Positions 444 through 62,213 of a stretch of 64,000 bases of DNA are shown piece after piece. The notes beneath the pieces were generated by a model. The model saw only the letters and a list, made by a program, of their open reading frames with translations, was not told where the DNA came from and did not search any database. Position numbers and translations under genes: made by a program. Origin of the DNA: Minisyncoccota bacterium (GTDB lineage Bacteria > Patescibacteriota > Minisyncoccia > Moranbacterales > UBA2206); the NCBI GenBank assembly GCA_031291955.1, contig JARLIA010000005.1, forward strand, positions 141,224 through 205,223. Direction: 5' to 3'. Positions within the stretch are counted from its first letter, which is position 1, and every line of letters starts with the position of its first letter.

Positions 444-1004
444 ATGCCAAAATTTATCACCAAAGGCCGCTTGAACGCGCTGGCTTGCCGGATGCAGCAA
501 GGTGACGTCGAAGCCTCTGGTCGAATTTTTGATTATTTCAGTCCGCTCTTTTTCGGCTATTTTGCCAAGCGGGTGCTGAACCGGGAAGTGGCCGAAGATT
601 TGGTCCAGGAAATCTTTTTGCGGATCATTAAAAATATCCGGAGTTTTGATGAGACTAGTGGAGACTTTTCTTCCTGGGTCTGGCGGATCGCCAAGAACCG
701 GTTGATCGATTATTACCGGGAGAAAAAAAGTATTTCGTTTTGCGATTTGGAAATTCTCAAGGAAGCCAAGGAGACATCTGCAGACGGCGATTGTTTGCAT
801 CATAAAATACTGGCAGAAAACGTATGCCGGATAGTGGGCGACTTTCGGCCGGAAGAGCAATCTGTCTTTACGCTCCGTTTCATTTCTGATTTGAGCTATA
901 AAGAAATGGCGGAGTTGACTGGCAGGTCGGAAGAGTCACTTCGTATCTCGGTTTTTCGTTTGAGAAACAAGCTCAAAAAAATATTCCATGATAAAATCAA
1001 TTAA
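444..1004 (+). CDS. ECF-type sigma-70 family RNA polymerase sigma factor
   Basis: Region 2 motifs (EDLVQEIFLRIIKNIRSFD, FSSWVWRIAKNRLIDYYR) and a region 4 HTH (SYKEMAELTGRSEESLRISVFRLRNKLKK). Size is 186 aa. Confidence 0.8.
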   Translation: MPKFITKGRLNALACRMQQGDVEASGRIFDYFSPLFFGYFAKRVLNREVAEDLVQEIFLRIIKNIRSFDETSGDFSSWVWRIAKNRLIDYYREKKSISFCDLEILKEAKETSADGDCLHHKILAENVCRIVGDFRPEEQSVFTLRFISDLSYKEMAELTGRSEESLRISVFRLRNKLKKIFHDKIN

Positions 1005-1782
1005 AAATTATATCCGTTTTCAGCGGCAGACGCGGCGATTGAAGCGTGCTTTGAAATATGAGTTGAAGCCGCGGCCGGAATTTTTTCGCGCGGCCCGGAA
1101 AAATTTTTTGGCGGAGTTTGAAGAAAAAAATTTTTCTTCCGGGAAAAAAGAAAACGAGCGGCCGCGAGCCACGCGAAAATATTCTTGGCGTTTTGCTTTT
1201 TTGGGAACCGTCCTGGCTTTTTTGGCTGGAGGGGGAGTAATGGCCATGGCCTGCCAGTCGGGCGTTAGTCCTGGCCAGCCGCTTTATTCCGTAAAAAGAG
1301 CCGGAGAAAATGTTCAGCTGGCCCTGGCTTCCAAAAGCCAGGAACCATTCGTGCATTATCAGCTGGCCAAAAACCGGCTGGCTGAAATAAAAGATCTAAA
1401 TGATGAGATAAGCTCGGATCGGGTTTTGGATAGTTCGGGAAATTCATCGTCTCAAGGTGTACCGCTCGCCGGTTCCGCGGATAAAAATCAAGCGGAAATT
1501 GGAAAGCTTGATCGAGAATTTGATGCTCAGATCGACGCGGCCCTCAAAAAGATCGATCAGATAGATGACAGAGTGTCAGATCAGTACGCCGACTTGTCTG
1601 GATCGGACCAAAGAAAAGAGAAGGAGCTCTGCCAAAGTATCGCTGTTACCCTCAAAGAACATAGTTTGATTTTGAGCGATTATGACGCTAATTACAAAGA
1701 AGATTTTTCGACTTGGCAGAAATATTGCGGTCGGACAATGGATGTCTCTCTGGACAGTGTTTCTTTGCCGGTCTGTCATTGA
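988..1782 (+). CDS. Membrane protein, putative anti-sigma factor partner
   Basis: Overlaps the sigma gene by 17 nt (translational coupling). Basic N-terminus, a single TM helix (FAFLGTVLAFLAGGGVMAMA), then a long extracytoplasmic coiled region. Confidence 0.4.
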   Translation: MIKSIKNYIRFQRQTRRLKRALKYELKPRPEFFRAARKNFLAEFEEKNFSSGKKENERPRATRKYSWRFAFLGTVLAFLAGGGVMAMACQSGVSPGQPLYSVKRAGENVQLALASKSQEPFVHYQLAKNRLAEIKDLNDEISSDRVLDSSGNSSSQGVPLAGSADKNQAEIGKLDREFDAQIDAALKKIDQIDDRVSDQYADLSGSDQRKEKELCQSIAVTLKEHSLILSDYDANYKEDFSTWQKYCGRTMDVSLDSVSLPVCH

Positions 1783-1886
1783 TTTTGTGATAAACTAGGA
1801 GAGCCGCATATGCCGAAAACGGATTGGAAAATAAAAGCGCGGTTTTAAAACAGGTTCTTAGAAATAAACTCTAAAACAAGCAAGGC

Positions 1887-3068
1887 ATGGAAAAAAAGTC
1901 TTCAGAAGAAGAGCAGCCAGTGGTTGTTCCGGTAAAGCATTTGCCGAAAAAAAAGCGCAAGAAAATCCGCTGGGCGAGACTTATGGGTCTTGTCGGGTTT
2001 TTGGTTTTGGCTGGAGGGATTCTTTTTCTTAAATTCGATTTGGGAGCGGCGGCGATTTTTACGGACAATGTATTGCGTCCGCTGATTGGCGACAGTCGGG
2101 TCATTTATCTGGAAGGACTTTTCTTCAACACTTCCGACCAAATGCAGCGCTTGGCTTCGCCGCTGGAAAAACCTAAAGCGCCCCAGTTTATCGATCCGGG
2201 AAAAACCAATCTGGAAAGCAGTGGTTTGGATTTGAGTCCGATCAAGCTCGCGAACAATTTTTCGCCGCTGGCCGGCGAAGGAACGTGGCGTGATTATCCG
2301 CTCCAATTGTTTCCGGGCAAAGAAGCGATGGCTTATACTTTTGTCCGACCCGACCCGGCGCGGTCATATGCCATGGTGACGATGGTCCAGCTAGACATGA
2401 GTGTGATGCGGCTGGGGAGCGTCGCTGGCACCCAGCAACCGGGCGGACCGGTCAAAAAACCGGGGCCGGGCGTGGTGCCTAAAGACGTTATAGACAGTGG
2501 AAATCTCATTGCCGCTTTTGACGGCGGTTTCCAATACAAAGACGGCGCGTATGGTATGATTGTCGGCAACACCACTTATCTGCCGCTCAAATATGATCTG
2601 GGAACTTTGGTTGGCTATACCGATGGGACGCTCAAAATAGTCAACTATACCGGGCAATCTTTGGGCAGTAACATCGCTTTTGTCCGCCAGAACTGTCCGT
2701 TGTTGATTGATAATGGAACAATTACAGTGACCGATTCAAAAGACCGGAAACTTTGGGGGCGATTGGCGACCGGGACGGTCGGAATTTACACCTGGCGCTC
2801 CGGCATTGGTCTCTCTAAAAACGGCAATCTCATTTTCGCGGTTGGGAATAATCTCACGCCGGACACTCTGGCGATCGCACTCCAAGCTGCCGGAGCGGTG
2901 AACGCCATCCAGTTGGACATTAATCCGATCTGGGTTCGCTTCAATATTTTTGAACCATCCGGTTCCGGCCAATACACTTCAACTACGCTGACCAAAGATC
3001 TGGCCGACGGAGCCAAACAGTATCTTCATGGCTATCAGAAAGATTTCTTTTATGTTTATAAAAAGTAG
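1887..3068 (+). CDS. Phosphodiester glycosidase-like (DUF2233) membrane-anchored protein
   Basis: N-terminal TM helix. The C-terminal domain has the Gly/Asn-rich NLIFAVGNN and DGGFQYKDG segments typical of DUF2233 exopolysaccharide-related proteins. Confidence 0.4.
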   Translation: MEKKSSEEEQPVVVPVKHLPKKKRKKIRWARLMGLVGFLVLAGGILFLKFDLGAAAIFTDNVLRPLIGDSRVIYLEGLFFNTSDQMQRLASPLEKPKAPQFIDPGKTNLESSGLDLSPIKLANNFSPLAGEGTWRDYPLQLFPGKEAMAYTFVRPDPARSYAMVTMVQLDMSVMRLGSVAGTQQPGGPVKKPGPGVVPKDVIDSGNLIAAFDGGFQYKDGAYGMIVGNTTYLPLKYDLGTLVGYTDGTLKIVNYTGQSLGSNIAFVRQNCPLLIDNGTITVTDSKDRKLWGRLATGTVGIYTWRSGIGLSKNGNLIFAVGNNLTPDTLAIALQAAGAVNAIQLDINPIWVRFNIFEPSGSGQYTSTTLTKDLADGAKQYLHGYQKDFFYVYKK

Positions 3069-3100
3069 ACTACGAGATTAAACCTAGTCTGGTCATAATA

Positions 3101-3135
3101 AAAACTACCTTCATGGGTAGTTTTTGTTTCTATGA
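3101..3135. terminator. Bidirectional intrinsic terminator between convergent genes
   Basis: AAAACTACC-TTCATG-GGTAGTTTT stem-loop flanked by A-run and T-run. Confidence 0.6.
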
Positions 3136-3169
3136 TAAATTCAATATTTGCTTAGTTTGTCTATTTCAA

Positions 3170-4579
3170 TCAATAGACACTTAGACCGGTACATGCGGCA
3201 GGAGTTGTTGCATTGCCCAAAGAAACATATTCATCCGCTCCGATGTCCCAAGCGCCGGTTGCAGGGCGGCTATCGCTATCAATATCAGTAGAAAAAGATA
3301 GATTTGTGTCCGCGGATAGATTGATTCCATCGCCAATGGCCGTTGTGTCAGAAGCGTTGAGGTGATAATCGGCATTGGTCGAATCGGCAAAAGTCAAACT
3401 CGAGTTGTTGGTGGAATTGGTTCCTGGCGCGTCAGAAGACAAGTCGGACAGATTGTTTTGAGAATTGCTATCAAATGTTCCGCCATAGCCAGTTGCACAA
3501 TTTTGGGCAATGTCATTTTTAGCCACAAATGTCCCATTGACACTGTTGTAGCATATATCCTCACCAGCCCCGGCCGAGCCGATGGTTGTATTGTTATAGG
3601 CATAAAGAATATTGGCGCTTCCATCAAGTGATATGCCTCCCTGTAAAAAGCCGTAAATAATATTGTTCCAAGCTTGGTATATTCCAGCGTTGGATATCGT
3701 ACTGATGTTGATCCCGAAATTAGACATGCCATTTACTGGATCGGCCTTGAGGATGGAATTGCTTATTTTGACTTTTCCGGAAGTGTTAGTCAGGTCGATC
3801 GCGTCCGTTCCCATCATAGTGGCGCCGGAAAAAATTTGCAGTCCATCGATCCAAACGTTGGCTGAATTTATGTTCATGGGCGGCCCATTGGTATCGTCAT
3901 CAGAATCCAATCTATATTTACTGTCGTCCCAGGCTCCGTTTGGACGCTGGCTAATCCCAACTTCGGAACTTAGATACGGAGTATATATTTTTATGTAATG
4001 CGTGTCGTCCGTCACCCAGTCAATCGCGCTATTGTTGATGGCTACTCCGGTTGTCAAATCTTCCGCGTCACTGTAACAGGCGATATTCCACTGCTCATCC
4101 GCTGTCACCAAATCTTTTCCGCCAGTCCAGGAATCGAAATCACGAACACTTGCGTCAATGGCCGGATTTTCAAGGCCGGATCCAGTGACGGCATCAGCGA
4201 GAGAGGTGTAAGCCCGGTAAACATTTACGGCGGTACCGGATGGAGCAGCTTGAGGCGCGCCGCCGTCCGCCGCTTGAACGGTATATTGAGTCGAAGATGT
4301 TCGGCTGGAAATAAAAGCCAGATAATAGGTCGAGGAGATTTGATATTGCAAAACATCACCGACGCCTACATTATTGGGCATAGCGCCAGAGAAAGTGACA
4401 GTCGTGCCAGAAATAGTCACGGTTCGGCTATTGGCATTAAGATTGGCAGTATTGCCCGCTCCTACTGAACGATAGATAACCGTCGCCGCGTGAGCGGAAG
4501 AAAAAGAAAATAGACTGCAAAACAAGATTAAGCAAAATAGAAAAATTTTCATTTTATTTTCTATTTTCAAGCCTTTCAT
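3170..4579 (-). CDS. Secreted Thr/Ser/Asn-rich beta-helix-like protein
   Basis: Signal peptide MKIFLFCLILFCSLFSFSSAHA starts at Met-10, so the likely true start is 4552. Repetitive G/N/T/S-rich segments resemble a right-handed beta-helix or pectate-lyase fold. No recognisable catalytic motif. Confidence 0.5.
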   Translation of the reverse strand: MKGLKIENKMKIFLFCLILFCSLFSFSSAHAATVIYRSVGAGNTANLNANSRTVTISGTTVTFSGAMPNNVGVGDVLQYQISSTYYLAFISSRTSSTQYTVQAADGGAPQAAPSGTAVNVYRAYTSLADAVTGSGLENPAIDASVRDFDSWTGGKDLVTADEQWNIACYSDAEDLTTGVAINNSAIDWVTDDTHYIKIYTPYLSSEVGISQRPNGAWDDSKYRLDSDDDTNGPPMNINSANVWIDGLQIFSGATMMGTDAIDLTNTSGKVKISNSILKADPVNGMSNFGINISTISNAGIYQAWNNIIYGFLQGGISLDGSANILYAYNNTTIGSAGAGEDICYNSVNGTFVAKNDIAQNCATGYGGTFDSNSQNNLSDLSSDAPGTNSTNNSSLTFADSTNADYHLNASDTTAIGDGINLSADTNLSFSTDIDSDSRPATGAWDIGADEYVSLGNATTPAACTGLSVY

Positions 4580-4653
4580 AAAATATAAATTTATATGATT
4601 TCATTTGTTAACCCTCCATGTAATAATTATGACAGCTCGATAAAAAAATGCAA

Positions 4654-4690
4654 GTGAAAAAAATCCGCCGAAATATTTTGATTTCGGCGG
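4654..4690 (-). terminator. Intrinsic terminator after the sigma-54 activator gene
   Basis: CCGCCGAAAT-ATTTTG-ATTTCGGCGG 10 bp stem, followed by a T-run on the minus strand. Confidence 0.55.
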
Positions 4691-4702
4691 CAATAATGAT
4701 TG

Positions 4703-5980
4703 CTATTTCATCCAGGAGCCGAACCATAACCCATCTGGATGTTTTATTTTTTGTTCTTTGATCAGCTTTTTAAGCTGGCTGATGCCCACCTGAAGCGCGT
4801 TTGCCGTAGCCCGGAGGGACCAGTTATTTTTCTCCAGCATTTCTATTAACGCACTCTTCTCGTCACCTTCCTTCTTTGGTCTAATGTCGTCGCCCACACC
4901 ATTGACCATACAATGCTTCTGCTCAGGCATAGATTTTAGACCCAATACTTCCATAGTCTCTCTTTCCTTATTCTCTGACGAAAGCGCGGTCTTTTCTTTG
5001 GGGCCATTCCTTCTCCAGCTGGAATGCGTAATTCCAAAATAGTTAATTTTGTAGTTAAGCGTTCGCGGCGTGATCCCGAGCGATATCGCCGCCATTTTTT
5101 GCACCCAGGACGAATCTTGAAGAGCCTGAATAATTCTTTCCCGATCCATTTCTTCAAGCGTTTTTTTACTCCGAAGCGCGGTTTTTTCAGTGAAGAAGTC
5201 TAGGTGCTCCAAATCAAGAATTCCGTTTTCCACAAAAGCCAAGGCGCAGGTGACAACGCTTTTCAATTCCCGGACATTTCCTCTCCACGAGCAAGAAAGC
5301 AAGAATTGTTTAGCTTTTTTGGAAATTTTCACTGCTTCAAACTCCAGCTTATGAAGTTCTTGTGCGATGAAATATTCCGCCAGAGCAACTATGTCCTCCA
5401 ACCTTTCGCGAAGCGGAGGAATATGAATTCTGAAAGTGCCGATCCGATAAAAAAAATCATCCCGAAAAGTTCCTTTTTTTATCTTATCTTCCAGATTACA
5501 GTTGGTGGCAGTCACAATCCTGACATCTGTTTCGCGCGCAGTATCGCTGCCCACCGGAAAAACGATTTTTTCTTCCAGAACGCGGAGAAGCTTTACTTGT
5601 ATTTCAGCGGAAATATCTCCGATCTCATCCAGGAAAAGCGTCCCCTTATGAGCTTGGACAAAAAGACCTTTTCTGTCTCTATTGGCTCCGGTGAATGACC
5701 CCCTAACATGGCCAAACAGCTCACTTTCCAAAACAGAACTGGAGAAAGCCGATACATTGGCCGCTACAAAATGTCCACTGAAACGATTGCTTTTCTGGTG
5801 AATCAGGTTAGCGATCAGCTCTTTTCCTACTCCTGATTCGCCGGTAACAAGAACCGGGACATCGGACCTGGCTATTTTAGCAGACAACCTTTCGATTTCT
5901 TTCATTGCCGGGCTTTCGCAGACGGGAAGTCTGGACACCCGACTGGAAATATTCACGATTTTTCTTGCTTTAATCTCCAT
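4703..5980 (-). CDS. Sigma-54-dependent transcriptional activator, no receiver domain, two tandem Fis-type HTH domains
   Basis: AAA+ sigma-54 interaction domain with Walker A GESGVGKE, GSFTGA (GAFTGA variant), Walker B LFLDEIGD. Two C-terminal Fis-like HTHs (ISLGITPRTLNYKINYFGI and ALQVGISQLKKLIKEQKI). Start chosen at ATG 5980, which has a GGAGGGG Shine-Dalgarno (MEIKARK); the six-frame ORF extends further to 6130. Confidence 0.75.
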   Translation of the reverse strand: MEIKARKIVNISSRVSRLPVCESPAMKEIERLSAKIARSDVPVLVTGESGVGKELIANLIHQKSNRFSGHFVAANVSAFSSSVLESELFGHVRGSFTGANRDRKGLFVQAHKGTLFLDEIGDISAEIQVKLLRVLEEKIVFPVGSDTARETDVRIVTATNCNLEDKIKKGTFRDDFFYRIGTFRIHIPPLRERLEDIVALAEYFIAQELHKLEFEAVKISKKAKQFLLSCSWRGNVRELKSVVTCALAFVENGILDLEHLDFFTEKTALRSKKTLEEMDRERIIQALQDSSWVQKMAAISLGITPRTLNYKINYFGITHSSWRRNGPKEKTALSSENKERETMEVLGLKSMPEQKHCMVNGVGDDIRPKKEGDEKSALIEMLEKNNWSLRATANALQVGISQLKKLIKEQKIKHPDGLWFGSWMK

Positions 5981-6129
5981 ATTACCCCTCCATTCGACTC
6001 GCATAAGAAGAAATTTCATGTGACTTTCGCCACAAATTTTTGACCATTTTAATGTGCTGACCAGATTATACGAAAAGTTATTATAAAAAACAAGGCCCCA
6101 TCCGGTTTCGGATGAAGGCCCCTTAAACA

Positions 6130-6906
6130 TCAGTTAGAGTAAAAAATAATTTCCGCGATTTCGGCCGAGGTTGGCAAGTACGAATAGACATAGGAATAGC
6201 CGTAACTGCCAACGACATTGTTTGGCTGGGCCGTTGTTAGGTCGGCCGACAAATCCACTCTTGCAGTGTTCCACGCGCCATAGTTGGCGGTGCCAAGCCC
6301 CATGGTCACATTGGTCCCTGTTCCGCCCAGGCTGGTGCTTTGAAATTTGTAGATCATGTTTCTTGCGCCCAGTGTGGATGTCAAAGAGAACACGAAGTAG
6401 GGAGTGTTAGCGCCGGAAGCCACTTTATATTTAATCAGGACCTTATGGGCGGCTACCGGTATAGGCGAGATGGCAGTATAATCTGCCGCGCTTCCGGTAC
6501 TGCTGCCGAATGAAGCGACATAGTCCGCCAGGACTGAATCGAAAAGCAAATTGGGCGGGTTGCCCTTCATGATTATCCAGTTGTTGTAATTGGAACCGTC
6601 TTCGATGAAGTTAATGATAAGCTCCGAGCTATAACTGCTTTCGCTGGTCCCATCATAAGCCGTGACGGCCGCATAAATAGTTTGCCCTTTGGGAAGAGAG
6701 GGAATAGTACACTGCGTCACATTTCCCACGTCAAGAGAGGAAGTATAGTTGCCCGTTGAAGTCCCGTAATATACTTTATAGCCAGTAACAGTTGGGTCAG
6801 TACTTGCAGTCCAAGCAACAGTAGCGCTTCCTGCCTGGACAGGATTGGAAAAAATCAGCCCTGCTAAAATAATCAGAACGCCAACAACCAATCTTTTTGT
6901 TTTCAT
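6130..6906 (-). CDS. Secreted protein with fibronectin type III domain
   Basis: Signal peptide MKTKRLVVGVLIILAGLIFSNPVQA. FN3-like segment TVAWTASTDPTVTGYKVYYGTSTGNYTSS...AVTAYDGTSESSYSSEL. Good RBS AAAAGGAG. Confidence 0.5.
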   Translation of the reverse strand: MKTKRLVVGVLIILAGLIFSNPVQAGSATVAWTASTDPTVTGYKVYYGTSTGNYTSSLDVGNVTQCTIPSLPKGQTIYAAVTAYDGTSESSYSSELIINFIEDGSNYNNWIIMKGNPPNLLFDSVLADYVASFGSSTGSAADYTAISPIPVAAHKVLIKYKVASGANTPYFVFSLTSTLGARNMIYKFQSTSLGGTGTNVTMGLGTANYGAWNTARVDLSADLTTAQPNNVVGSYGYSYVYSYLPTSAEIAEIIFYSN

Positions 6907-7096
6907 TTTAAACTCCTTTTCGACCTGATATTTTATTTTTGTTTTACCGAGAGATAATACCCTCGGAAATATAATGTACTGCCCTTAGTATACCACCTAA
7001 TGGCTATGTCTGAAATAGTCATAATGATATTTTTCCATATTCGGGTTTAGTGCTATAATTCACAATAAACCGATTAATCAAATTGAGTTAAAATTT

Positions 7097-9073
7097 ATGC
7101 CTAATCTAGTTGATTCTATCATCATCTTTATCGCTCAGGACCTCATTTGGCTGGTTGTTTTGGCGGCCATCTGGTTTTTTGGGAAATTGCCTTCGAGTGA
7201 AAGAAAACGGGCGATTATTCTCGCAATTATCGCTTTGCCACTCGCTTACATTGCCGGTAAAATTTTGTCCTTGGTCTATTACGATCCGCGTCCATTTGTG
7301 GCCGATCATTTTGCGCCGCTTTTCTCTTATGTAGCCGATAATGGCTTTCCCTCTGATCACGTGCTGCTTTTGGCGGCGATTGCGGCTGTGATTTATTATT
7401 TCAACCAAAAAAAAGGGACACTCTTTTTTTTGGCGGCGGCAGCTGTGGGCACGGCTCGGGTGTTGGCCGGTGTCCACCACCTGGTGGATATTTTAGGCAG
7501 TTTGGTTATTGCTGGCGCGGCAACTTATTTGGTGCAAAAAATGATCTTTCCGCGTTACGCGGAAAAAATTGACAATTTTAAATTTTGTCGGCCGAAAATG
7601 ACCAAAAAGCGCTGGATTATTTTTGGCGCAATTGTTGTTGTGATTGGGGGATTGACCGGAATAACTTTTGCGGAAATAGGAAATGGCCATCTGCCTTGGA
7701 ATAAAATTTACGCGCCTGTTACTGCCAGCGTTTCCAGTAGTCCGGACAACGCTCAGGGCATCCACAAGATCAAACACATCATCGTTATCATGCAGGAGAA
7801 CCGTTCCTTTGACCAATACTTTGGCACTTTCCCGGGGGCTACTGGTATCCCGATGAAAGACGGCGTTCCGACGGTGTGCGTGCCCGACCCAAACACTAAA
7901 ACATGCGTAAAACCTTTTCATGATACCAACTTGGTGGACGCGGGCGGACCACATCAAGCTTCGGATGCGGTGGGGGATATTAATAGCGGCAAGATGGACG
8001 GTTTCATTGCCCAGGAAGAAAAAGCGCTTGTCCAGTCGTGCAAAAATAAAAAAAGCACCGATCCGAATTGCGCTCTTAATAAGAGCGTGCCGGACCTGAT
8101 GGGCTATCACACCAATGCCGAGATTCCCAACTATTGGGCCTACGCCAAAAATTTCGTGCTGAATGATCACATGTTCTCTTCGGCCGCCTCCTGGAGCCTG
8201 GTAGCTCACCTTTATATGGTTTCGGCCTGGTCGGCCAAATGCCAATCTGATGACCCGATGAGCTGTCAAAACCAGTTGGAATATCCGGCCAAGCCCAAAA
8301 CCAATCCGGACTACGCCTGGACCGACATTACGTATTTACTTCACAAATACAACGTCAGCTGGGGGTATTATCTCGGCCAAGGTTATCAGCCGGACTGTGA
8401 TGACGACGAGATGACTTGCGCTCCTTTGCCGCAAAACGTCAAAATTTCCAGCTACTGGAATCCGCTGGTCGATTTTGAAACGGTGAAACAGGATAATCAG
8501 TTGGGGAATATTAAAGATGTTAAGAATTTTTATACCGAAGCTAAGAACGGCACCTTGCCTAGTATTTCTTGGATCGTGCCCAATCAGACCGACAGCGAAC
8601 ACGCGCCGGCCAACATTGCTGATGGACAGGCCTATGTCACCAGTCTCATCAATGCCGTTATGCAAAGTCCGAATTGGAACGACTCGGCTATTTTTCTGGC
8701 TTGGGACGATTGGGGTGGTTTTTATGACCATGTCCAGCCGCCAGTGGTGGATGAGAATGGTTATGGACTGCGCGTTCCGACCATCGTCATCAGTCCGTAC
8801 GCTAAAGCTGGTTACATTGACCACCAAACCCTAAGCTTTGACGCCTACCTGAAATTCATGGAAGATGATTTCATGGGTGGCGCGCGGCTTGATCCGACCA
8901 CTGACGGCCGACCGGATCCGCGGCCGACCGTCCGGGAGAATGTGCCAATTCTTGGCGACTTGACCAAAGATTTTGATTTTTCCCAAACACCCCGGCCGCC
9001 GTTCATTTTGCCAGTCCATCCAACCGCCAATTCCTTTGTCCGATTCTGGGACTGGCTAATCAGCCGATTTTAA
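7097..9073 (+). CDS. Fusion protein: N-terminal PAP2 membrane phosphatase + C-terminal phosphoesterase (phospholipase C / acid phosphatase) domain
   Basis: PAP2 motifs [25 protein letters not shown] (SRx5Hx3D). After a TM segment comes the [28 protein letters not shown] hallmark of the PF04185 phosphoesterase family. Confidence 0.65.
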
Positions 9074-9168
9074 ACATATTAGCATGTCAGCATGTTAACA
9101 TATTAACAAAATGACGCTGGTATGCTAAAATGTTAATATGATTTATAATAATTAATCAATCCAAAATT

Positions 9169-9711
9169 ATGTCAGAAGGAAAAATCGCCGGCTTTGAGAA
9201 AAAAACCGTTCTCATTGTCGTCATAATTGTCGTCGTGGTGCTCGGCGGTTATTATTTTGCCACACACAACAAGAAAAAGAAGAGCGCGAGCAGCAAAGCC
9301 AATGCCTCGGCCCAGTACGTCACTGGAACACTGACGGCCCAAGATGCTAACAGTCTGACCATTAAGATGGCTGATGGCAGTTCTCAAACAGTTGTAGTCA
9401 ACGCCACCACCCGGATGAGCAAAAAAAACAAAGGAGTGCAAGCGTCCAGCCTGCCAATCGGCGATCAGGTGAAAATCAAAGTCAGTGGGACAGGCGGTAA
9501 TCTTTCTGCTATGGTAGTGGAAGACACCAGCATTTCAACTTCAACCAAGACCAAGTCGACAACTGCCGCGCCGGCTACTATCCCCGCCGCAGGTACTGTC
9601 CCGACAACTGGTACGTCCACTACTCCGACCACGGGAACAACCGCTCCAGCTGCTTCTACTGCCAACACAACTGCTCCGGCGGCTACTGCAACTCCGACCC
9701 CGGTCAACTAG
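9169..9711 (+). CDS. Membrane-anchored protein with Thr/Pro/Ala-rich C-terminal tail
   Basis: N-terminal TM (LIVVIIVVVVLGGYYF), small globular region, then a low-complexity T/P/A tail. Similar architecture to the ORF at 22258..22641. Confidence 0.4.
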   Translation: MSEGKIAGFEKKTVLIVVIIVVVVLGGYYFATHNKKKKSASSKANASAQYVTGTLTAQDANSLTIKMADGSSQTVVVNATTRMSKKNKGVQASSLPIGDQVKIKVSGTGGNLSAMVVEDTSISTSTKTKSTTAAPATIPAAGTVPTTGTSTTPTTGTTAPAASTANTTAPAATATPTPVN

Positions 9712-9824
9712 TGCTAACAGATCATGCCCATTAATTTAAACCGGCACCCCAAGGGCGCCGGTTTTGTTTGACAGAAAATCTGTTTTATTTATATGATATA
9801 ATGAATATGCTGGAATATTGATCA

Positions 9825-11509
9825 ATGAAAAAAATTTTCCAAAAAATTCCGCGAAGCGCGCTTATCCTAACCGTCATTGTTTTGGTGGGCGTTTTTTTGC
9901 GCGCTTACAATTTTCATGCTTGGTTGGACTTTGAAAACGACCAGGTTCGGGATGCTAATCTGGTCAGAAGCGTTCTTCAGGGAAAAGCTCTTTGGCCGCT
10001 TCTTGGGCCGGATATGACCGGCTCGGGGCGGTCACATAACAGCGGATTATTCTATGTTGGACCGGCTTACTATTATTTTGAGATCATTAGCGCCAAAATA
10101 TTCGGTGCGAGTCCGGCCGCCGAGGCTTATCCAAATCTGCTTTTTGCCATTCTGTCCATTCCTCTTTTCTATCTTTTTTTAAGCGCTGCTTCGGCGCCAA
10201 TCTGACTTTGGCATTGACCGGGCTTTACGCCATTTCCTATTATGCCATTCTTTATGCCCGTTTCTCCTGGAACTCCAACCCGATTCCGTTTTTCACGCTT
10301 CTATTTTTACTCTCGCTTCATGAATTTCTCGTCAAGAAAGAAAAAACGCATTGGGGCTGGGCGGTCATCCTAGGAATTGCCATTAGGATCGGTTTCCAAC
10401 TCCACCTAATTCTCATGGCGCTTTTTCCGGCGACGGCTTTCTTCGTTTTTCTGTTTCTATTTTTCCAGAATAAAAATATTTGGAAATCGCTGGCGCTGGC
10501 GGTTTTGATTGCTATTGTTCTCAATGCACCACAGATAATCCATGAGGTTCGATATGATTATTCCAATACTCATACTTTTATCAAAGACATGACCGGCAGC
10601 AATCGGATTGATAATTCCAAAAAGGTCGATCTGTCGACCAATCTGGAAAGATCGCTGGATTGTCATGCTGAAGCCAACGCCTTCATGGTGTCTTCGGCTG
10701 GAGACAATGTGTGCGGCTTTTCTTACGTTGGTTTGTTTCACAGTCGTAATCCCGCATATATTAATCTGCTTACCGGAAGCGATCCTTCTATTTTTTTGGC
10801 GCAACTGCGTACTGCGAATTTTTGGATAATTTTGATCGGCGGATTGTTTTTTTCCATTCTTGGCTATGGATTATTTACTCGCCGATGCTTCAAAGAACAG
10901 GATGAAGGAAAGAAATGTTTTTTGTATTTAATCGCTCTCTATCTGATTCTTTCCTTTTTCATTATGACTTCGGTCATTGGCGGCGGGTTCACGGAGTTTC
11001 GCTACTTTATTCATACTTTTTTCGTTCCTTTTTTATTTTTGGGTCTCATCGCTGAATATCTCATAGGGATAAAAAAGTTCCGCCCTGTCTGGATAATTGT
11101 CTGCGTTTTGCTTTTTCTCGGAGTAGCGGTCTTTAACGTGAAAGCTATTGCTTCCCGTTATGAAGCATTGGCGGCCAAAGACGGTAGCAATGAACATTTT
11201 GTGATTCTGGGAGAGGTTGAACCGATGGTTTCTTATCTGATTAATAATTCAGCCGGAAGTAAGGAAGTTCAGTTGGACGGTAATCCGCGCTATCTATCAA
11301 ATTTCTTCAATGCCTTAAATTATCTGGCCGGCAATCAAAACTTCAAACTTATCCGCGTTACCCATCCGAATAAAATTACGGCTGGAAAAACACTTTTTTA
11401 CATCACCATAAACGGGAATAATCCTCTCGATATGAAAGAGGATGGACACAAGATTGGAAGCCGCCGGGATTTCGGACAAGTGACGATCTATCAGCTGGTT
11501 AATCCGTAA
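9825..11509 (+). pseudogene. GT-C fold membrane glycosyltransferase (GT39/ArnT-like) interrupted by a -1 frameshift in a T7 homopolymer
   Basis: ORFs 9825..10205 and 10208..11509 together are collinear with the intact paralog at 16266..17582. Frame 0 matches through LFYLFL, and frame +2 resumes at KRCFGANLTLALTGLYAISYY, which aligns with the paralog's RKYFSQTASLLATAVYAFSY. The switch point is the T-run at 10174-10180; one extra T would restore a single ORF. Confidence 0.6.
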
Positions 11510-17627: not shown

Positions 17628-17861
17628 TCAAAAGTGTTTCTTCGTAAATGCCCGGCCGGAACCAGATTTTAGATATTTCTCGAATTCAAAAGCTTTATAC
17701 TTATCTTCAAACGCAATGTAATTTACCAAAGTTATTGGCAATCTTGGTTTTGTTGCTGGTACATACCCATTAGCATGCCGCTTTATCCTTTCTCTTAAAT
17801 CACTGGTGCAGCCAGTATATAGCTTTCCATCGTTACATTTTAATATGTAAACGTAATACAT
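17628..17861 (-). CDS. GIY-YIG nuclease family protein (UPF0213-like)
   Basis: MYYVYILKCNDGKLYTGCTSDLRERIKRHANG is a canonical GIY-YIG motif arrangement. 77 aa. Confidence 0.8.
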   Translation of the reverse strand: MYYVYILKCNDGKLYTGCTSDLRERIKRHANGYVPATKPRLPITLVNYIAFEDKYKAFEFEKYLKSGSGRAFTKKHF

Positions 17862-17932
17862 ACGCGGGAATCCCGCCTTCGCAGGCTACTTAGCGGACTT
17901 TGTCCGCCGTAGCCCGCTACTGCGGGCGAAGG

Positions 17933-18019
17933 CGGAGAGACAGGGATTCGAACCCTGGAAGGGATTTCTCCCTTAGCACATTAGCAGTGTGCTGCTTTCA
18001 GCCACTCAGCCATCTCTCC
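17933..18019 (-). tRNA. tRNA-Ser (anticodon GCT)
   Basis: The reverse complement is GGAGAGATGGCTGAGTGGCTGAAAGCAGCACACTGCTAATGTGCTAAGGGAGAAATCCCTTCCAGGGTTCGAATCCCTGTCTCTCCG. Long variable arm. No CCA encoded. Confidence 0.8.
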
Positions 18020-18035
18020 AAAATATTAAATTGTG

Positions 18036-18122
18036 CGGAAGCGGAGGGATTCGAACCCCCGGTGCCGTTTCCGGCACAACAGTTTTCAAGACTGTCGCCT
18101 TCAACCACTCGGCCACGCTTCC
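18036..18122 (-). tRNA. tRNA-Ser (anticodon TGA)
   Basis: The reverse complement is GGAAGCGTGGCCGAGTGGTTGAAGGCGACAGTCTTGAAAACTGTTGTGCCGGAAACGGCACCGGGGGTTCGAATCCCTCCGCTTCCG. Long variable arm. A TTTACA-N17-TATGAT promoter-like sequence lies just upstream on the minus strand. Confidence 0.8.
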
Positions 18123-19021: not shown

Positions 19022-19092
19022 CGGAGTGTGGTATAGTGGTATTACGCACGATTCGGGTTCGTGTAATCCGGGTTCGATTCCCGGCACTCCGA
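19022..19092 (+). tRNA. tRNA-Pro (anticodon CGG)
   Basis: CGGAGTGTGGTATAGTGGTATTACGCACGATTCGGGTTCGTGTAATCCGGGTTCGATTCCCGGCACTCCGA. Its 3' 25 nt are repeated at 21491-21515. Confidence 0.75.
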
Positions 19093-19355
19093 CAAATAAA
19101 GGCTTTACAGAGCTTTTTTTTGTTGGACTGTGACGATATTGTGACAAAAAATCCAAAATAAAGTGTTCAATGACAAAGTTTTTTCAAATTAAAAATGCCC
19201 ATATAAGCCCTTTTAATTTGAAACTAATCATTTACCGATCGGAATATCTTTGGTTGCCCGACCCATTCTTACAAACAAATTCTACCCAGGTCTAATAAGT
19301 TTGCAAGATATTTATACTTTGGTATAATGTAATCATAAGCATTAATACCAAGTTT

Positions 19356-20537
19356 ATGTTCAAAGAAAGGTACTTGCATTCTGCGGTTACCGGTGATCTT
19401 AGAGAAAAGATGGTTTTTATTGGTGGCCCGAGGCAGGTAGGTAAGACCACCCTGGCTCGCCAGATCGGGGAGGGTGATTACAAAAAATACGACTATCTGA
19501 GCTGGGATAACCGACAAGACAGAAAAAGAATAATCGAAGGGCAATTCAAAGCCGACGCCGATCTTCTGATTTTTGACGAGATACACAAGTACCGGCAATG
19601 GAAAAATTATCTCAAGGGAGAATTTGATCAAAACAAAGATAAATTCAACATCCTGGCCACGGGCAGTGCCAGAATGGATGTCTACCGCCGGGGCGGAGAT
19701 TCGCTCATGGGCCGGTACCATTATTATCGCTTGCATCCGTTTACTCTCGCGGAGGCCTCGGGATTAGCACCTGTTCTTACCGTCCTTAAAGAACCTTCCT
19801 TCGTCGATCCAGACAAGAACCATTTGGGCAAAGTATTTTCAGATCTTTTCCGTTTTGGCGGTTTCCCTGAGCCGTTTATAAAGAAGGATCTGATGGAACT
19901 GCGGCGTTTTCACAATGAGCGGCTTGACCGGCTCGTGAAAGAGGACATCCGCGATATTGAACAGATCCGCGATTTATCCGCCCTCCAGGTGTTGGTCGAT
20001 ATACTGCCGGAAAAAGTCGGCTCGCTCCTTTCTTTGAATTCGCTCAAGGAAGATTTGTTGGTGACGCATAAAACTGTCTCTCTCTGGATGAACGTGCTGG
20101 AGCGGTTCTATTATCATTTCCGCATCTATCCGTTCGCAGGCAGTGCCATTCGGTCTTTAAGGAAAGAGCCGAAGATGTATCTCTGGGATTGGTCGCAGCT
20201 GGAAAATGAGGCGGCCAGATTTGAAAATCTCATTGCCTCGCATCTTCTCAAAGTGGCGCATTACTTTTATGACAGGCAAGGACACAAGGTTGAACTTTTT
20301 TTCCTTCGCGACACCGACGGCCGAGAAGTCGACTTTTTGCTTACTGTAAATAGGAAGCCCTGGCTGGCCGTGGAAGCCAAGATGACCGCCAGCGAAAATT
20401 CTAATCATTTGGGTTACTTCTCCACCCGGCTAAAAATACCTTTCTCTTATCAGGTTATTAAAGAAAGCGGAGTTGATTACCTGAAGGACGCTGTTCGTTT
20501 TATCAGCGCCGATAAATTTTTGAGCGGGCTGATGTGA
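19356..20537 (+). CDS. AAA+ ATPase with C-terminal DUF4143 domain (COG1373-like)
   Basis: Walker A GGPRQVGKTT, Walker B LLIFDEIHKY, and a C-terminal DUF4143-like region. Confidence 0.7.
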   Translation: MFKERYLHSAVTGDLREKMVFIGGPRQVGKTTLARQIGEGDYKKYDYLSWDNRQDRKRIIEGQFKADADLLIFDEIHKYRQWKNYLKGEFDQNKDKFNILATGSARMDVYRRGGDSLMGRYHYYRLHPFTLAEASGLAPVLTVLKEPSFVDPDKNHLGKVFSDLFRFGGFPEPFIKKDLMELRRFHNERLDRLVKEDIRDIEQIRDLSALQVLVDILPEKVGSLLSLNSLKEDLLVTHKTVSLWMNVLERFYYHFRIYPFAGSAIRSLRKEPKMYLWDWSQLENEAARFENLIASHLLKVAHYFYDRQGHKVELFFLRDTDGREVDFLLTVNRKPWLAVEAKMTASENSNHLGYFSTRLKIPFSYQVIKESGVDYLKDAVRFISADKFLSGLM

Positions 20538-20651
20538 TGATAGAATTATTTTCTTGGCTCGGAGTGATATAGCAACAATACCCACGCGCCTTTGACGCGT
20601 GGGTATTTGTTTTGTGTCCGATTACCCGGGTCAGTTCTTGTACGCCCGAGC

Positions 20652-20870
20652 TTATCTTATCGGCTCAAAACTTATACTCTTCAAAAATTTTTCCATGTCC
20701 TCTGCTCTGAATCTAATCTGGCCCTGAATCTTGCAGAAAGGAATCTGCCTGCTTTGAACCAGCCGGTAAACGGTTCTTTTAGAAATGCTGAAATACTCGG
20801 CCAATTCCTTGGGATTCATGGCGCTTGGGAGAGGTGTATCCATAACGCTGTTATGCACACAATGGATCAA
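20652..20870 (-). CDS. Excisionase-family HTH_17 DNA-binding protein
   Basis: ELAEYFSISKRTVYRLVQSRQIPFCKIQGQIRFRAEDMEKFL is the Xis/MerR-like HTH_17 pattern. Confidence 0.6.
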   Translation of the reverse strand: MIHCVHNSVMDTPLPSAMNPKELAEYFSISKRTVYRLVQSRQIPFCKIQGQIRFRAEDMEKFLKSISFEPIR

Positions 20871-21032
20871 ACAATCCGTGTTTGATCAAAGATGCTTATT
20901 TAACCAATTAAAAAATACTACATCTAGGATATAGGATGCGCCGGGTGTTTATAAGGAGGGATTATTTGCCGGCCAAAGCAAAATCTGTCAGAAGATAAGT
21001 TCCAACATGCAAGATCAAAAAATAGGAAGGTT

Positions 21033-21242
21033 TTATGTATATTTCTTTATCGGTTCAATGCAGACCTTCCCAAGGTAATCATCCAGATCATCCTGCTTGA
21101 ACCTCAGGACGCCGGCAACCTTATAGAATCGGAACTGTCGTTTGTTTACAAGCCTGTAAAGCGTGGCTTTTGAAACCGACAAAAATTGTGCCACCTCATC
21201 CGGAGTCAATAGTTTGTTGCGTCGAGTTGAATTTGTTTCCAT
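21033..21242 (-). CDS. Excisionase-family HTH_17 DNA-binding protein (paralog)
   Basis: LTPDEVAQFLSVSKATLYRLVNKRQFRFYKVAGVLRFKQDDLDDYL. It shares a C-terminal EPI motif with the neighbouring paralog. Confidence 0.6.
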   Translation of the reverse strand: METNSTRRNKLLTPDEVAQFLSVSKATLYRLVNKRQFRFYKVAGVLRFKQDDLDDYLGKVCIEPIKKYT

Positions 21243-21606
21243 AAAAATAAATTAGAATTTATTACTTTCCACAAACAAAAAGCTGTTGCGAAAGCAGTTG
21301 CCATTTCAGGTGCCTTTACCGCTTCTCCCTATATCGCCAGCGTCACAAAATCTGTGACGCTATTGTGACAAAGAAGTGGCAAGTGCTTTCCTTAGGGGGC
21401 ACTCACAGTCACAGCAGTTTTGCCTTCAGATAAAGTGTAATTGAGATATTCGGCTTCTGCAAGGCCTTATCCGAATGCTTTCCTGACGGTTTCGATTCCC
21501 GGCACTCCGACAAATTGTATGAAATCAGACACAAATCCGGCCGACCAGGCCGGATTTGTGTTTTTTGGAAGGTTGTGCTAAGTTTGATTGTCTTATAGAT
21601 AACTCT

Positions 21607-22778: not shown

Positions 22779-22943
22779 ATGGAAAAACACGTCAGAAAAT
22801 TGACCAAAACATCAACCCACAGCTTGTATGTCATCATCCCGAAAGATATTCTTGAGAAATACAAATGGCGGGAGAAACAACGGGTTGTCATCGTTGACAA
22901 AGGCCGTGGCAAAATCGAAATTAGCGATTATCGGAGCAAATAG
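22779..22943 (+). CDS. AbrB/MazE/SpoVT-family swapped-hairpin DNA-binding protein (54 aa)
   Basis: Translation is MEKHVRKLTKTSTHSLYVIIPKDILEKYKWREKQRVVIVDKGRGKIEISDYRSK. This fits the AbrB/MazE fold pattern (YxVxIPKxIR...G...V). Not in the supplied ORF track because it is under 60 aa. Confidence 0.5.
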   Translation: MEKHVRKLTKTSTHSLYVIIPKDILEKYKWREKQRVVIVDKGRGKIEISDYRSK

Positions 22944-61153: not shown

Positions 61154-62213
61154 ATGAATACGCTTAACCGACCGATCTGGTTTTTCCCTGCCCAGCCGCT
61201 TAAACTATTAGATGAATATGACCGTTGGCGGCAAGTAGCCAAAATACTCAAATTATCCAAAGAGGCCTGCCTCCGGCTGGAATGGATCATCTATTATTGC
61301 GAAGGCCACGCCGCCACCTCGACTGCCAGGCATTATGGCATTTCCCGAAAGACTTTTTACAAATGGTTCAAAGTTTTTGATCGGGATAATTTGTATAGCC
61401 TCTATCAACTGGAAGACAAATCCAAGGCTCCCAAAAAAACCAGACAGCGGGAAATCACTCCCATTCAGGAACAGAGAATTATCCAGTTAAGAAAACGGTA
61501 TATCCGTTGGGGCAAAGAGAAGTTAGCGGTCATTTACCAGGAAGAATTTGGAGAAAAGATATCCGCTTGGAAAATCCAGAAAGTGATTGAGAATTGGAAG
61601 CTGTATTATCACCCGCAAAAAGCCTACAAAAACAAGCTCAAAAGAAGAAAAAACAAAAAGAAAAAGCGGATTACCGAACTTAAATTGGACAAAAAGGTTT
61701 CAGTTCCAGAAGAAAGCCGGCTACATCGTCTGCCTGGACACGGTGGAAGCAAGATGGAACAGTTTGAAAAGATATATTTTTACCGCCGTGGATAAATACG
61801 GCAAAGTGGCTTACGCCCGTATGTACAAAAACAAAAGTTCCAGTAACGGTGAAGATTTCCTCTATCGGTTGCATTTTCTTTTAGATGGCAAGATTCCAAG
61901 AGTTGGTCACGATAACGGATCTGAATTTGAAAAGTGTTTCCGGTCCGCCTGCGAGAAACTGAAAATCGAGCAATATTACTCTCGTGTGAGAACCCCCAAA
62001 GACAATCCCAACAACGAAAGATTTAATCGGACGCTGCGGGAAGAATTTATCGCCCTGGGGAATTTCCATTCCGACCCGGAAGTATTCAACAAACATCTGA
62101 CGGAGTGGCTCATCGAATACAATTTCAAAAGGCCTCATGAGGCTCTGGGATATCGGACGCCCATGAAAGCCAGCCACTTGTCACCTATGTACTCATCTTG
62201 TACAGTGACTTGA
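61154..62213 (+). mobile_element. IS481-like insertion sequence with the transposase split by a +1 frameshift in an A-rich run
   Basis: orfA (61154..61795) has an N-terminal HTH. orfB (61587..62213) has an rve DDE core (YIVCLDTVE..., GHDNGSEF, NNERFNRTLREEF). The frame switch falls in AGAAAAAACAAAAAGAAAAAG at about 61650-61670. Terminal inverted repeats were not identified. Confidence 0.65.

Follow-up and report, generated by a model that had tools for sequence, protein, structure and literature searches.

Cis-mobilizable elements (CIMEs), as defined in streptococcal systems, arise by decay from integrative and conjugative elements (ICEs) or integrative and mobilizable elements (IMEs) and keep the attL and attR attachment sites, whereas the genes for integration and transfer are lost (Guedon et al. 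2017, PMC5704250). Two further described systems invite comparison with a small element at a tRNA gene: the tRNA-linked islands, which combine a tyrosine integrase and an Xis-type recombination directionality factor with core and arm sites of the lambda type, and the phage satellites, such as the phage-inducible chromosomal islands (PICI) and P4-like elements. Described satellite families generally encode their own integrase. Little is known, to our knowledge, about the mobile elements of Patescibacteria, whose genomes are very small and which live attached to other cells. Here we analyze a 2.4-kb islet in a 64-kb stretch of the genome of a Minisyncoccota bacterium (assembly GCA_031291955.1, contig JARLIA010000005.1, positions 141,224 to 205,223; hereafter the window, in whose numbering all coordinates are given). 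The islet lies at the 3' end of a tRNA-Pro(CGG) gene and holds three open reading frames (ORFs) between two tRNA-derived cores, one encoding an AAA_14/DUF4143 ATPase and two encoding HTH_17 proteins of the excisionase family, which we call HTH_A and HTH_B. It is probably a CIME-like, non-autonomous element that derives, without the integrase, from a family of small integrative islands that target tRNA genes.

The islet resembles a CIME in being flanked by the attL and attR of a site-specific element at a tRNA 3' end, in having no integrase, and in having relatives that stand in tandem with integrase-bearing elements; as the definition of these elements has it, both attachment sites are kept and the integration and transfer genes are gone. 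It differs in that its parent family, in which no conjugation or mobilization genes were seen, is not demonstrably one of ICEs or IMEs, in that two excisionase-family genes are retained, and in that the host belongs to the Patescibacteria (candidate phyla radiation, CPR); mobilization, moreover, is only putative here. With the tRNA-linked islands the islet shares a core formed by a tRNA 3' end and arm-type sites arranged as direct repeats in both arms, and its parent family has an HTH_17 gene directly upstream of int as well as defence-type cargo. However, the islet itself lacks int, the family integrase is less than 32% identical to any found in the phage and plasmid collections searched, and one arm-type site of the family lies inside the last codons of int. 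Small size, a tRNA-type site, and dependence on the functions of another element recall the phage satellites, but the islet has no replication, packaging, capsid-redirecting, or repressor genes, and scans of IMG/VR with its 25-nt core, its 20-nt arm repeat, and its ATPase returned no relative. The idea of a satellite-like element, raised in a preliminary description of the locus made from its sequence, is therefore not supported in the phage-satellite sense. The likeness to PDC-S01, a candidate system in PADLOC that consists of a single AAA_14 plus DUF4143 ATPase gene, covers the cargo of the islet only, and its defence activity is a prediction.

The preliminary description had claimed an exact 25-nt duplication of the tRNA-Pro(CGG) 3' end, and this is what we find. 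The 25-mer TTCGATTCCCGGCACTCCGACAAAT has exactly two copies in the window, even if three mismatches are allowed, and none in shuffled sequence, so a second copy is not expected by chance. It comprises the T-loop, the 3' strands of both the T-stem and the acceptor stem, the discriminator base, and the next five bases downstream (CAAAT), and the similarity of attL and attR reaches 29 nt with one mismatch. Just past the attR core lies a perfect hairpin (Table 1) that probably served as the terminator of the tRNA-Pro pair before the islet parted it from the tRNAs. With a GC content of 43.5%, compared to 45.6% for the window, the islet presents no useful anomaly of composition. In an Rfam search of the islet only the two tRNAs passed, and the sub-threshold matches overlapped a tRNA or the terminator.

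Table 1. Features of the islet and its immediate surroundings, in window coordinates.
Feature	Start	End	Strand	Basis and remarks
tRNA-Pro(GGG)	18944	19017	+	ARAGORN; Rfam tRNA, 53 bits; upstream partner of the tRNA pair, outside the islet
tRNA-Pro(CGG)	19022	19093	+	ARAGORN; Rfam tRNA, 62.4 bits; intact target gene, 3' end forms attL
attL core, 25-nt identity segment	19073	19097	+	Exact duplicate of 21491-21515
Shortened P' arm remnant	19098	19267		T-run after the core; arm-type site CTGTGACGATATTGTGACAAAAAA at 19128-19151; 13-bp inverted repeat 19182-19223
ATPase cassette	19268	20537	+	Own promoter 19301-19328; AAA_14 + DUF4143 gene 19356-20537
Terminator-like hairpin, 12-bp stem	20577	20607		Terminator scan, both strands; between the convergent ATPase and HTH_A genes
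HTH_A, excisionase-family HTH_17	20652	20870	-	Longest ORF 72 aa; gene callers start at ATG 20819, giving 55 aa; Pfam HTH_17, 2.7e-15
HTH_B, excisionase-family HTH_17, 69 aa	21033	21242	-	Pfam HTH_17; TIGR01764; paralogue of HTH_A
P arm	21243	21490		Conserved block ~21310-21390; palindrome 21340-21360; 20-mer 21353-21372; second hairpin region 21448-21476
Conserved hairpin	21313	21385	- (strand of HTH genes)	Outer stem 21373-21385 pairs with 21313-21325; RNAalifold
attR core, displaced copy of tRNA-Pro(CGG) 3' end	21491	21515	+	Exact repeat
Perfect 14-bp hairpin followed by T-run	21529	21561	+	Inverted repeat, 100% complementary; chromosomal flank B', just past the attR core

A second direct repeat, of 24 nt, lies near both ends of the islet, with CTGTGACGATATTGTGACAAAAAA on the left and CTGTGACGCTATTGTGACAAAGAA at 21352-21375 on the right. 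Its central 20-mer, TGTGACGNTATTGTGACAAA, occurs twice in the window against an expectation of 0.02, with one copy per arm (19129-19148 and 21353-21372) and both in the same orientation, and the left copy has been kept although neither of its flanks resembles the family described below. The palindromes noted earlier are present, with coordinates about 1 nt away from a naive reading: the halves of one are GCGTCACA at 21340-21347 and TGTGACGC at 21353-21360, and those of the other are ATTCGG at 21448-21453 and CCGAAT at 21471-21476. As the comparisons below show, they are pieces of a conserved arm region and not isolated curiosities. Over 151 nt, the right arm of the islet (21316-21466) shares 83% identity with the P arm of a metagenomic, integrase-bearing element, L104, and a block within it (21322-21378) is ~90% identical to more than 12 further elements in which a tyrosine integrase and an HTH_17 gene stand next to a tRNA 3' fragment (over 55-76 nt in 12 loci), a degree of conservation equal to that among the integrase-bearing elements themselves. 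The proposal that the repeats are an attL/attR footprint thus no longer depends on the repeat alone, being supported by the homology of the arms to those of elements with an integrase. Set against what is expected of an autonomous integrated element, the islet has bounding repeats from a tRNA 3' end and arms homologous to attP, and no recombinase gene was detected inside it.

The parent family was recovered by scanning metagenomes with the 20-mer TGTGACGNTATTGTGACAAA, which has 19 specified bases and for which chance alone would roughly give a few matches. The scan returned 25 loci, some of them unrelated. Fourteen share an additional block, which the search did not require, that is ~90% identical to window positions 21322-21378 and follows the pattern ...cacYtctccctatatcgccagcNNcacaaaaNc-20mer-gaRgtg.... 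The order characteristic of the family, seen in full in nine loci (L094/L116, L103, L104, L106, L108, L112, L119, L121, and L124/L125), consists of this block, ~115 nt, a tRNA 3' fragment, a hairpin terminator, ~90 nt, and a further 20-mer in the 3' end of an integrase gene; the tRNA fragments derive from different tRNAs in different elements. The integrase has ~360 codons, with the second copy of the 20-mer inside the last of them, and an HTH_17 gene lies 3-20 nt upstream of it. That of L104 matches PF00589 (Phage_integrase, 5.6e-34) and PF14659 (Phage_int_SAM_3). The layout can be read from these sequences as P arm, core, P' arm, int, and xis, and the window islet, if circularized at its cores, falls into the same order. 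Two loci (L093 and L097) have the attR form, with a P arm followed by a core and then by flanking DNA. The closest relative of the islet is L104, which carries a truncated HTH_B-like gene and an HTH_A homologue beside its P arm, arranged just as they are in the window. At E<=1e-30, the family integrase has more than 2,500 homologues, including proteins from Patescibacteria, Babeliales, and a 5.3-Mb genome, and one member of the close cluster is named Syntrophobacteraceae. The cargo of L104 and L124 consists of defence-type genes, namely SIR2-HerA, caspase-helicase, and toxin-antitoxin pairs. Among the database matches that were discarded, L118 from IMG/VR is a chance 17-mer match, and L092 (IMGVR_UViG_3300029288_000128) owes its match to a 20-nt 3' end that a phage tRNA-Pro(TGG) has in common with the tRNA-Pro(CGG) of the window, and is unrelated to the islet. 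The latter gene belongs to an array of eight tRNA genes on a phage contig (L092:2535-4394).

The absence of an integrase, also claimed in the preliminary description, is borne out over the full 64 kb by three kinds of search. A tblastn search of the window with the L104 integrase gave a best E-value of 4.8, although the same search detects integrases elsewhere that are 21-28% identical. A hidden Markov model built from nine diverse tyrosine integrases and run with filters off on all window ORFs of at least 40 aa gave a best E-value of 1.1. Pfam found no recombinase in the three islet ORFs, nor in 40 ORFs of the window, which yielded housekeeping genes (among them sigma factors, type IV pilus, ATP synthase, and ClpC-like and ComF-like proteins) and one IS630-like fragment. 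A pseudogene of the integrase was also looked for in 19098-19355 and rejected, as all that matches there is a stretch of ~7 codons overlapping the left 20-mer, which reads CHNIVTV where L104 has CCHNSVTV; these codons survive because they coincide with the arm-type site. With its GAT and the AAA after it, the left 20-mer is like an internal copy of the block in L104, and the 'ggac' upstream of it resembles the P' sites.

The annotation of the two small genes as paralogous HTH_17 excisionase-like genes, and of their neighbor as a DUF4143 AAA ATPase, was confirmed by Pfam. HTH_A and HTH_B are 42% identical over 55 aa, and neither has another relative in the window. Both ORFs are intact. Their scores against HTH_17 (PF12728) are 56.8 bits for HTH_A and 53.6 bits for HTH_B, and both pass the 28.8-bit cutoff of the excisionase model TIGR01764 ('excise'), with 46.1 and 45.9 bits, respectively. 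In PHROGs, they match only excisionase or HTH families, and the ATPase matches none. HTH_A shares 72.6% identity with the gene that L104 has in the matching position beside the P arm, and HTH_B is 55-59% identical to the HTH_17 genes that immediately precede the integrases of L104 and L112. The same placement of an HTH_17 gene directly before int is seen in L104 itself (61-273, followed by int at 277-1362) and in L120, L121, and L124. Based on this placement of their homologues, HTH_A and HTH_B may act with a cognate integrase to direct excision. With HTH_B as the query, a word-indexed search of 5.8 billion proteins found only HTH_B itself, and the exact islet is therefore not widespread; a sequence search of the PDB with HTH_B returned nothing useful.

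The conserved block of the P arm also contains a hairpin on the strand of the HTH genes. From an alignment of 13 family copies, RNAalifold predicts 26 pairs. In the specified stems 89.5% of the cells are paired, compared to 43-65% when the partners are slid, and four pairs are changed on both sides, giving a covariation score above those of all 500 shuffles. Non-Watson-Crick transitions on the HTH strand comprise 34 G.U and five C.A, counts that are not independent given that the sequences are related; the asymmetry suggests that RNA is a better fit than a plain DNA palindrome. The window copy is predicted to fold at -41 kcal/mol (z = -4.86), and no Rfam family matches it. Because the arm-type 20-mer lies inside the hairpin, the structure may act as a leader RNA, as a platform for protein binding, or in both capacities, and we regard it as a candidate for these roles.

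The ATPase gene appears to have a separate history. Its product matches AAA_14 (1.8e-25) and DUF4143 (1.3e-22) in Pfam as well as the PADLOC model PDLC04790 for PDC-S01 (E=2.4e-50, residues 5-353, near full length), and its translation contains a Walker A motif (GPRQVGKT), a Walker B motif (LLIFDE), and a C-terminal D...E-x-K. The last of these patterns is typical of restriction-endonuclease-like domains. The protein is a candidate anti-phage gene product, a predicted ATPase-nuclease; a PDB sequence search yielded no solved structure, and no NCBIfam model matched. A promoter scan places TTGCAA-16-TATAAT ahead of the gene, which converges on the HTH genes across the hairpin listed in Table 1. 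DNA similarity to another contig, L123 (1161-2433), covers exactly 19268-20537 at 79% identity and stops at both edges. Since the matching stretch runs out at 19268 on one side and at the stop codon (20537) on the other, the ATPase gene is best described as an independent cassette lodged in the islet, and the sequence comparison suggests that it was acquired as an independently mobile, self-promoted, single-gene module. Homologues that are 65-70% identical occur across many lineages of Patescibacteria. Four of them (in L007, L008, L010, and L123) are solitary and stand in unrelated contexts, and a conserved association of the ATPase with HTH_17 genes was therefore rejected. The closest homologue on a long contig, 77% identical, is found in a plasmid- or ICE-like region (L007:1-8185, ERZ21831019 ctg28536l), where its neighbors are ParA, ParB, a Replic_Relax protein, and a coupling protein of the TrwB/TraG type. 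The homologue in L008 adjoins the 3' end of a tRNA-Leu gene, and a tRNA-end repeat was sought around it and not found.

Islets without an integrase recur in the family, as seen in a 376-kb Patescibacteria contig (L122, Ga0265297_10000069) whose integrase is 53% identical to that of L104. In the array at 529-11244 of this contig, an autonomous element of 9.6 kb, equipped with int and HTH_17, stands in tandem with a 1-kb islet whose only gene is a NYN gene and which has no integrase. Here the integrase gene (10001-11119) converges on a tRNA-Thr gene (c11171-11244), the terminal 27 nt of which recur at 1544-1570 (96% identical) and 529-555 (85% identical), and an arm-type repeat, CTTGGCCACAATATGGCCACAAT, is found in the 3' end of the integrase gene and beside both distal cores. 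The array is in keeping with accretion as described for CIMEs (PMC5704250). The left module of L104 is likewise an islet without an integrase. Many of the relatives take the form of attP-like junctions (P block, tRNA 3' fragment, P' 20-mer, and int), some of them within very large contigs, at L119:11020-11400 (5.3 Mb), L125:10950-11500 (196 kb), and L121:8660-8980 (59 kb), where the flanking genes include SIR2-HerA, caspase-helicase, PIN/Phd, Fic, and RHS; these are probably junctions of tandem arrays.

Taken together, these data can be accommodated in the following model. Elements of the family would insert into tRNA 3' ends by means of their tyrosine integrase and an HTH_17 partner of the excisionase family. 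In the window, the core of an ancestral attP would have recombined with the last 20 nt of tRNA-Pro(CGG) and the five bases downstream, which would rebuild the tRNA at attL and leave the displaced copy, together with the old terminator, at attR. The integrase would then have been lost, along with any xis gene next to it. For this loss, the simplest route would be a deletion between two 20-mers repeated in direct orientation, because the break lies exactly at the 20-mer that overlaps the stop region of the integrase gene. The product would be the islet as it persists, with both cores, one arm site per arm, the conserved P arm, two genes of the xis family, and the ATPase cassette. It would not be mobile by itself and could be excised only by a cognate integrase supplied in trans or by a second element in tandem. 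After excision, the empty attB junction would read ...CCGGGTTCGATTCCCGGCACTCCGACAAATTGTATGAAATCAGACACAAATCC and the circular attP junction ...GCTTTCCTGACGGTTTCGATTCCCGGCACTCCGACAAATAAAGGCTTTACAGAGC. The deletion route, the binding partners of the 20-mer and of the HTH proteins, and the present-day mobility of the islet are matters on which we infer rather than observe, unlike the repeats, the homology, the absence of an integrase, and the tandem arrays of relatives.

Several observations weigh against the islet being such a derivative. The preliminary description had proposed a search for an empty tRNA-Pro site, and none was found, the islet being present in every contig from the same population; nor was a circular junction found in the same-population contigs, which come from three sequencing runs. 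The core-to-20-mer distance in the P' arm is 35 nt, as opposed to ~100-125 nt in the family, and the arm is without the clear terminator hairpin typical of the family, for which reasons attL may be defective. Within 10 kb of the attP-like junctions in L119, L125, and L121, there is neither a tRNA nor a second core. The proposed deletion between 20-mers would be traced by few bases (GAT, AAA, and 'ggac'). Finally, the gene tables of L104, L121, L122, and L124 contain no relaxase or type IV secretion genes, and because the parent elements are without conjugation or mobilization genes, the term CIME in its strict sense of decay from an ICE or IME is not an exact fit. Exact look-ups of the proteins encoded by the flanking genes and the ATPase gene returned the same strain only, always with the islet in place, and a scan of a genome collection with the neighboring ClpC-like protein gave no close relative, its matches being swamped by a universal AAA+ peptide.

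Among the alternatives, the one that deserves most attention holds that the islet is no dead remnant but an actively maintained hitchhiker, whose cores, arm sites, two excisionase-family genes, and structured P arm are preserved by selection and which the integrases of related islands in the cell or community excise and reintegrate, so that a single defence gene is shuttled among tRNA sites. We consider this unlikely, albeit with a good deal in its favor: the cores are identical in 25 of 25 positions, the left 20-mer has been kept between flanks unlike those of the family, both HTH ORFs are intact and HTH_A remains close to its L104 counterpart (72.6%), and the P-arm block is as conserved as in elements with an integrase. 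Islets of this kind recur, as the NYN islet of L122 and the left module of L104 illustrate, and close relatives of the integrase occur in phyla as distant as those of Syntrophobacteraceae and Patescibacteria. However, recent decay would leave identical intact-looking features, no helper integrase was seen within the 64 kb, neither an empty site nor a circle appeared in the three sequencing runs, the P' arm is shortened, and HTH_B is without close relatives among 5.8 billion proteins. On present evidence, the two readings that had been offered beside the satellite, a decayed element and one mobilized in trans, are indistinguishable.

The remaining explanations dispense with integration by a family element. 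If the HTH_17 genes were regulators of a three-gene defence locus that includes the ATPase, the 25-nt repeat would be a local duplication of a tRNA 3' end. HTH_17 proteins do occur in defence systems, both HTH proteins weakly match MAD1 (NF047737), a component of MADS, and the ATPase matches PDC-S01. The MAD1 scores of ~51 bits are nevertheless below the 80-bit cutoff, whereas both proteins pass the excisionase domain model; the ATPase gene, with a promoter of its own, converges with the HTH genes across a terminator, and its homologues in L007, L008, L010, and L123 have no HTH_17 neighbor. The HTH genes, like the arm next to them, have their homologues in the xis-int modules of integrative elements, and the idea, which we regard as very improbable, is refuted by this family homology. 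Still less credit can be given to the ATPase, with its nuclease-like DUF4143 domain, being a mobility enzyme and the repeat its target-site duplication. The uniformity of the ATPase family (65-70% identity in many Patescibacteria) in varied contexts suggests horizontal movement, and the L008 homologue does lie beside a tRNA-Leu 3' end, but that copy has no flanking repeat, the similarity of the cassette ends at the promoter and the stop codon with no terminal repeats in the four contexts examined, and in the window the duplicated segment is bordered by arms that have homologues in the attP arms of tyrosine integrases. A chimeric assembly joined at the repeated tRNA sequence, which might be suspected given that Logan contigs often break within the tRNA pair (L001 starts and L004 ends there), is the least plausible explanation of all. 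The attL junction is spanned by L006 and L001, which run continuously from the tRNAs into the islet, and the attR junction by L002 and L091, which continue from the islet through attR into a Zincin_1 gene; their sequences are identical, and they stem from different runs (three SRA runs) and from a separate NCBI metagenome-assembled genome. Because independent contigs read through both junctions, the arrangement is real.

Other features of the window are recorded here in their own right. Two overlapping ORFs (61154-61795 and 61587-62213), the first with HTH_32/HTH_28/HTH_23 domains of the sort typical of the N-termini of IS630-like transposases, are possibly a frameshifted or decayed insertion sequence. 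They are the only other trace of a mobile element in the window. A stand-alone 77-aa protein with a GIY-YIG nuclease domain (17628-17861, minus strand) adjoins a tRNA-Ser pair (17931-18122), and a gene for a 54-aa MazE/AbrB-type antitoxin-like protein (22779-22943, plus strand) lies ~1.3 kb past attR with no recognizable toxin adjacent to it. Farther away, at 4703-6130 on the minus strand, this Patescibacteria genome encodes a sigma-54-dependent activator (Sigma54_activat, 1.6e-62, and HTH_8).

Our analysis does not overturn current ideas; its value lies in a cleanly documented example and in an entry point to the family, which is a previously undescribed but ordinary and widespread type of tRNA-targeting defence island. 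The attP of this family is compact and well defined, comprising a core, a 20-mer in both arms, and a covarying hairpin, and it is directly testable for binding by integrase and excisionase. That integrase-less mini-islands in general are selected hitchhikers rather than debris, which retain cores, arm-type sites, Xis-like genes, and a conserved structured leader in the P arm and borrow integrases from related defence islands so as to carry single defence cassettes from one tRNA site to another, seems to us a rather doubtful generalization. If true, such movement would include exchange of Patescibacteria with unrelated bacteria that have large genomes and near-identical arm DNA. For the Patescibacteria, the locus documents that they are reached by a family of islands that target tRNA genes and carry defence genes, that this family gives off derivatives without an integrase, and that a candidate defence ATPase moves as a cassette of its own.

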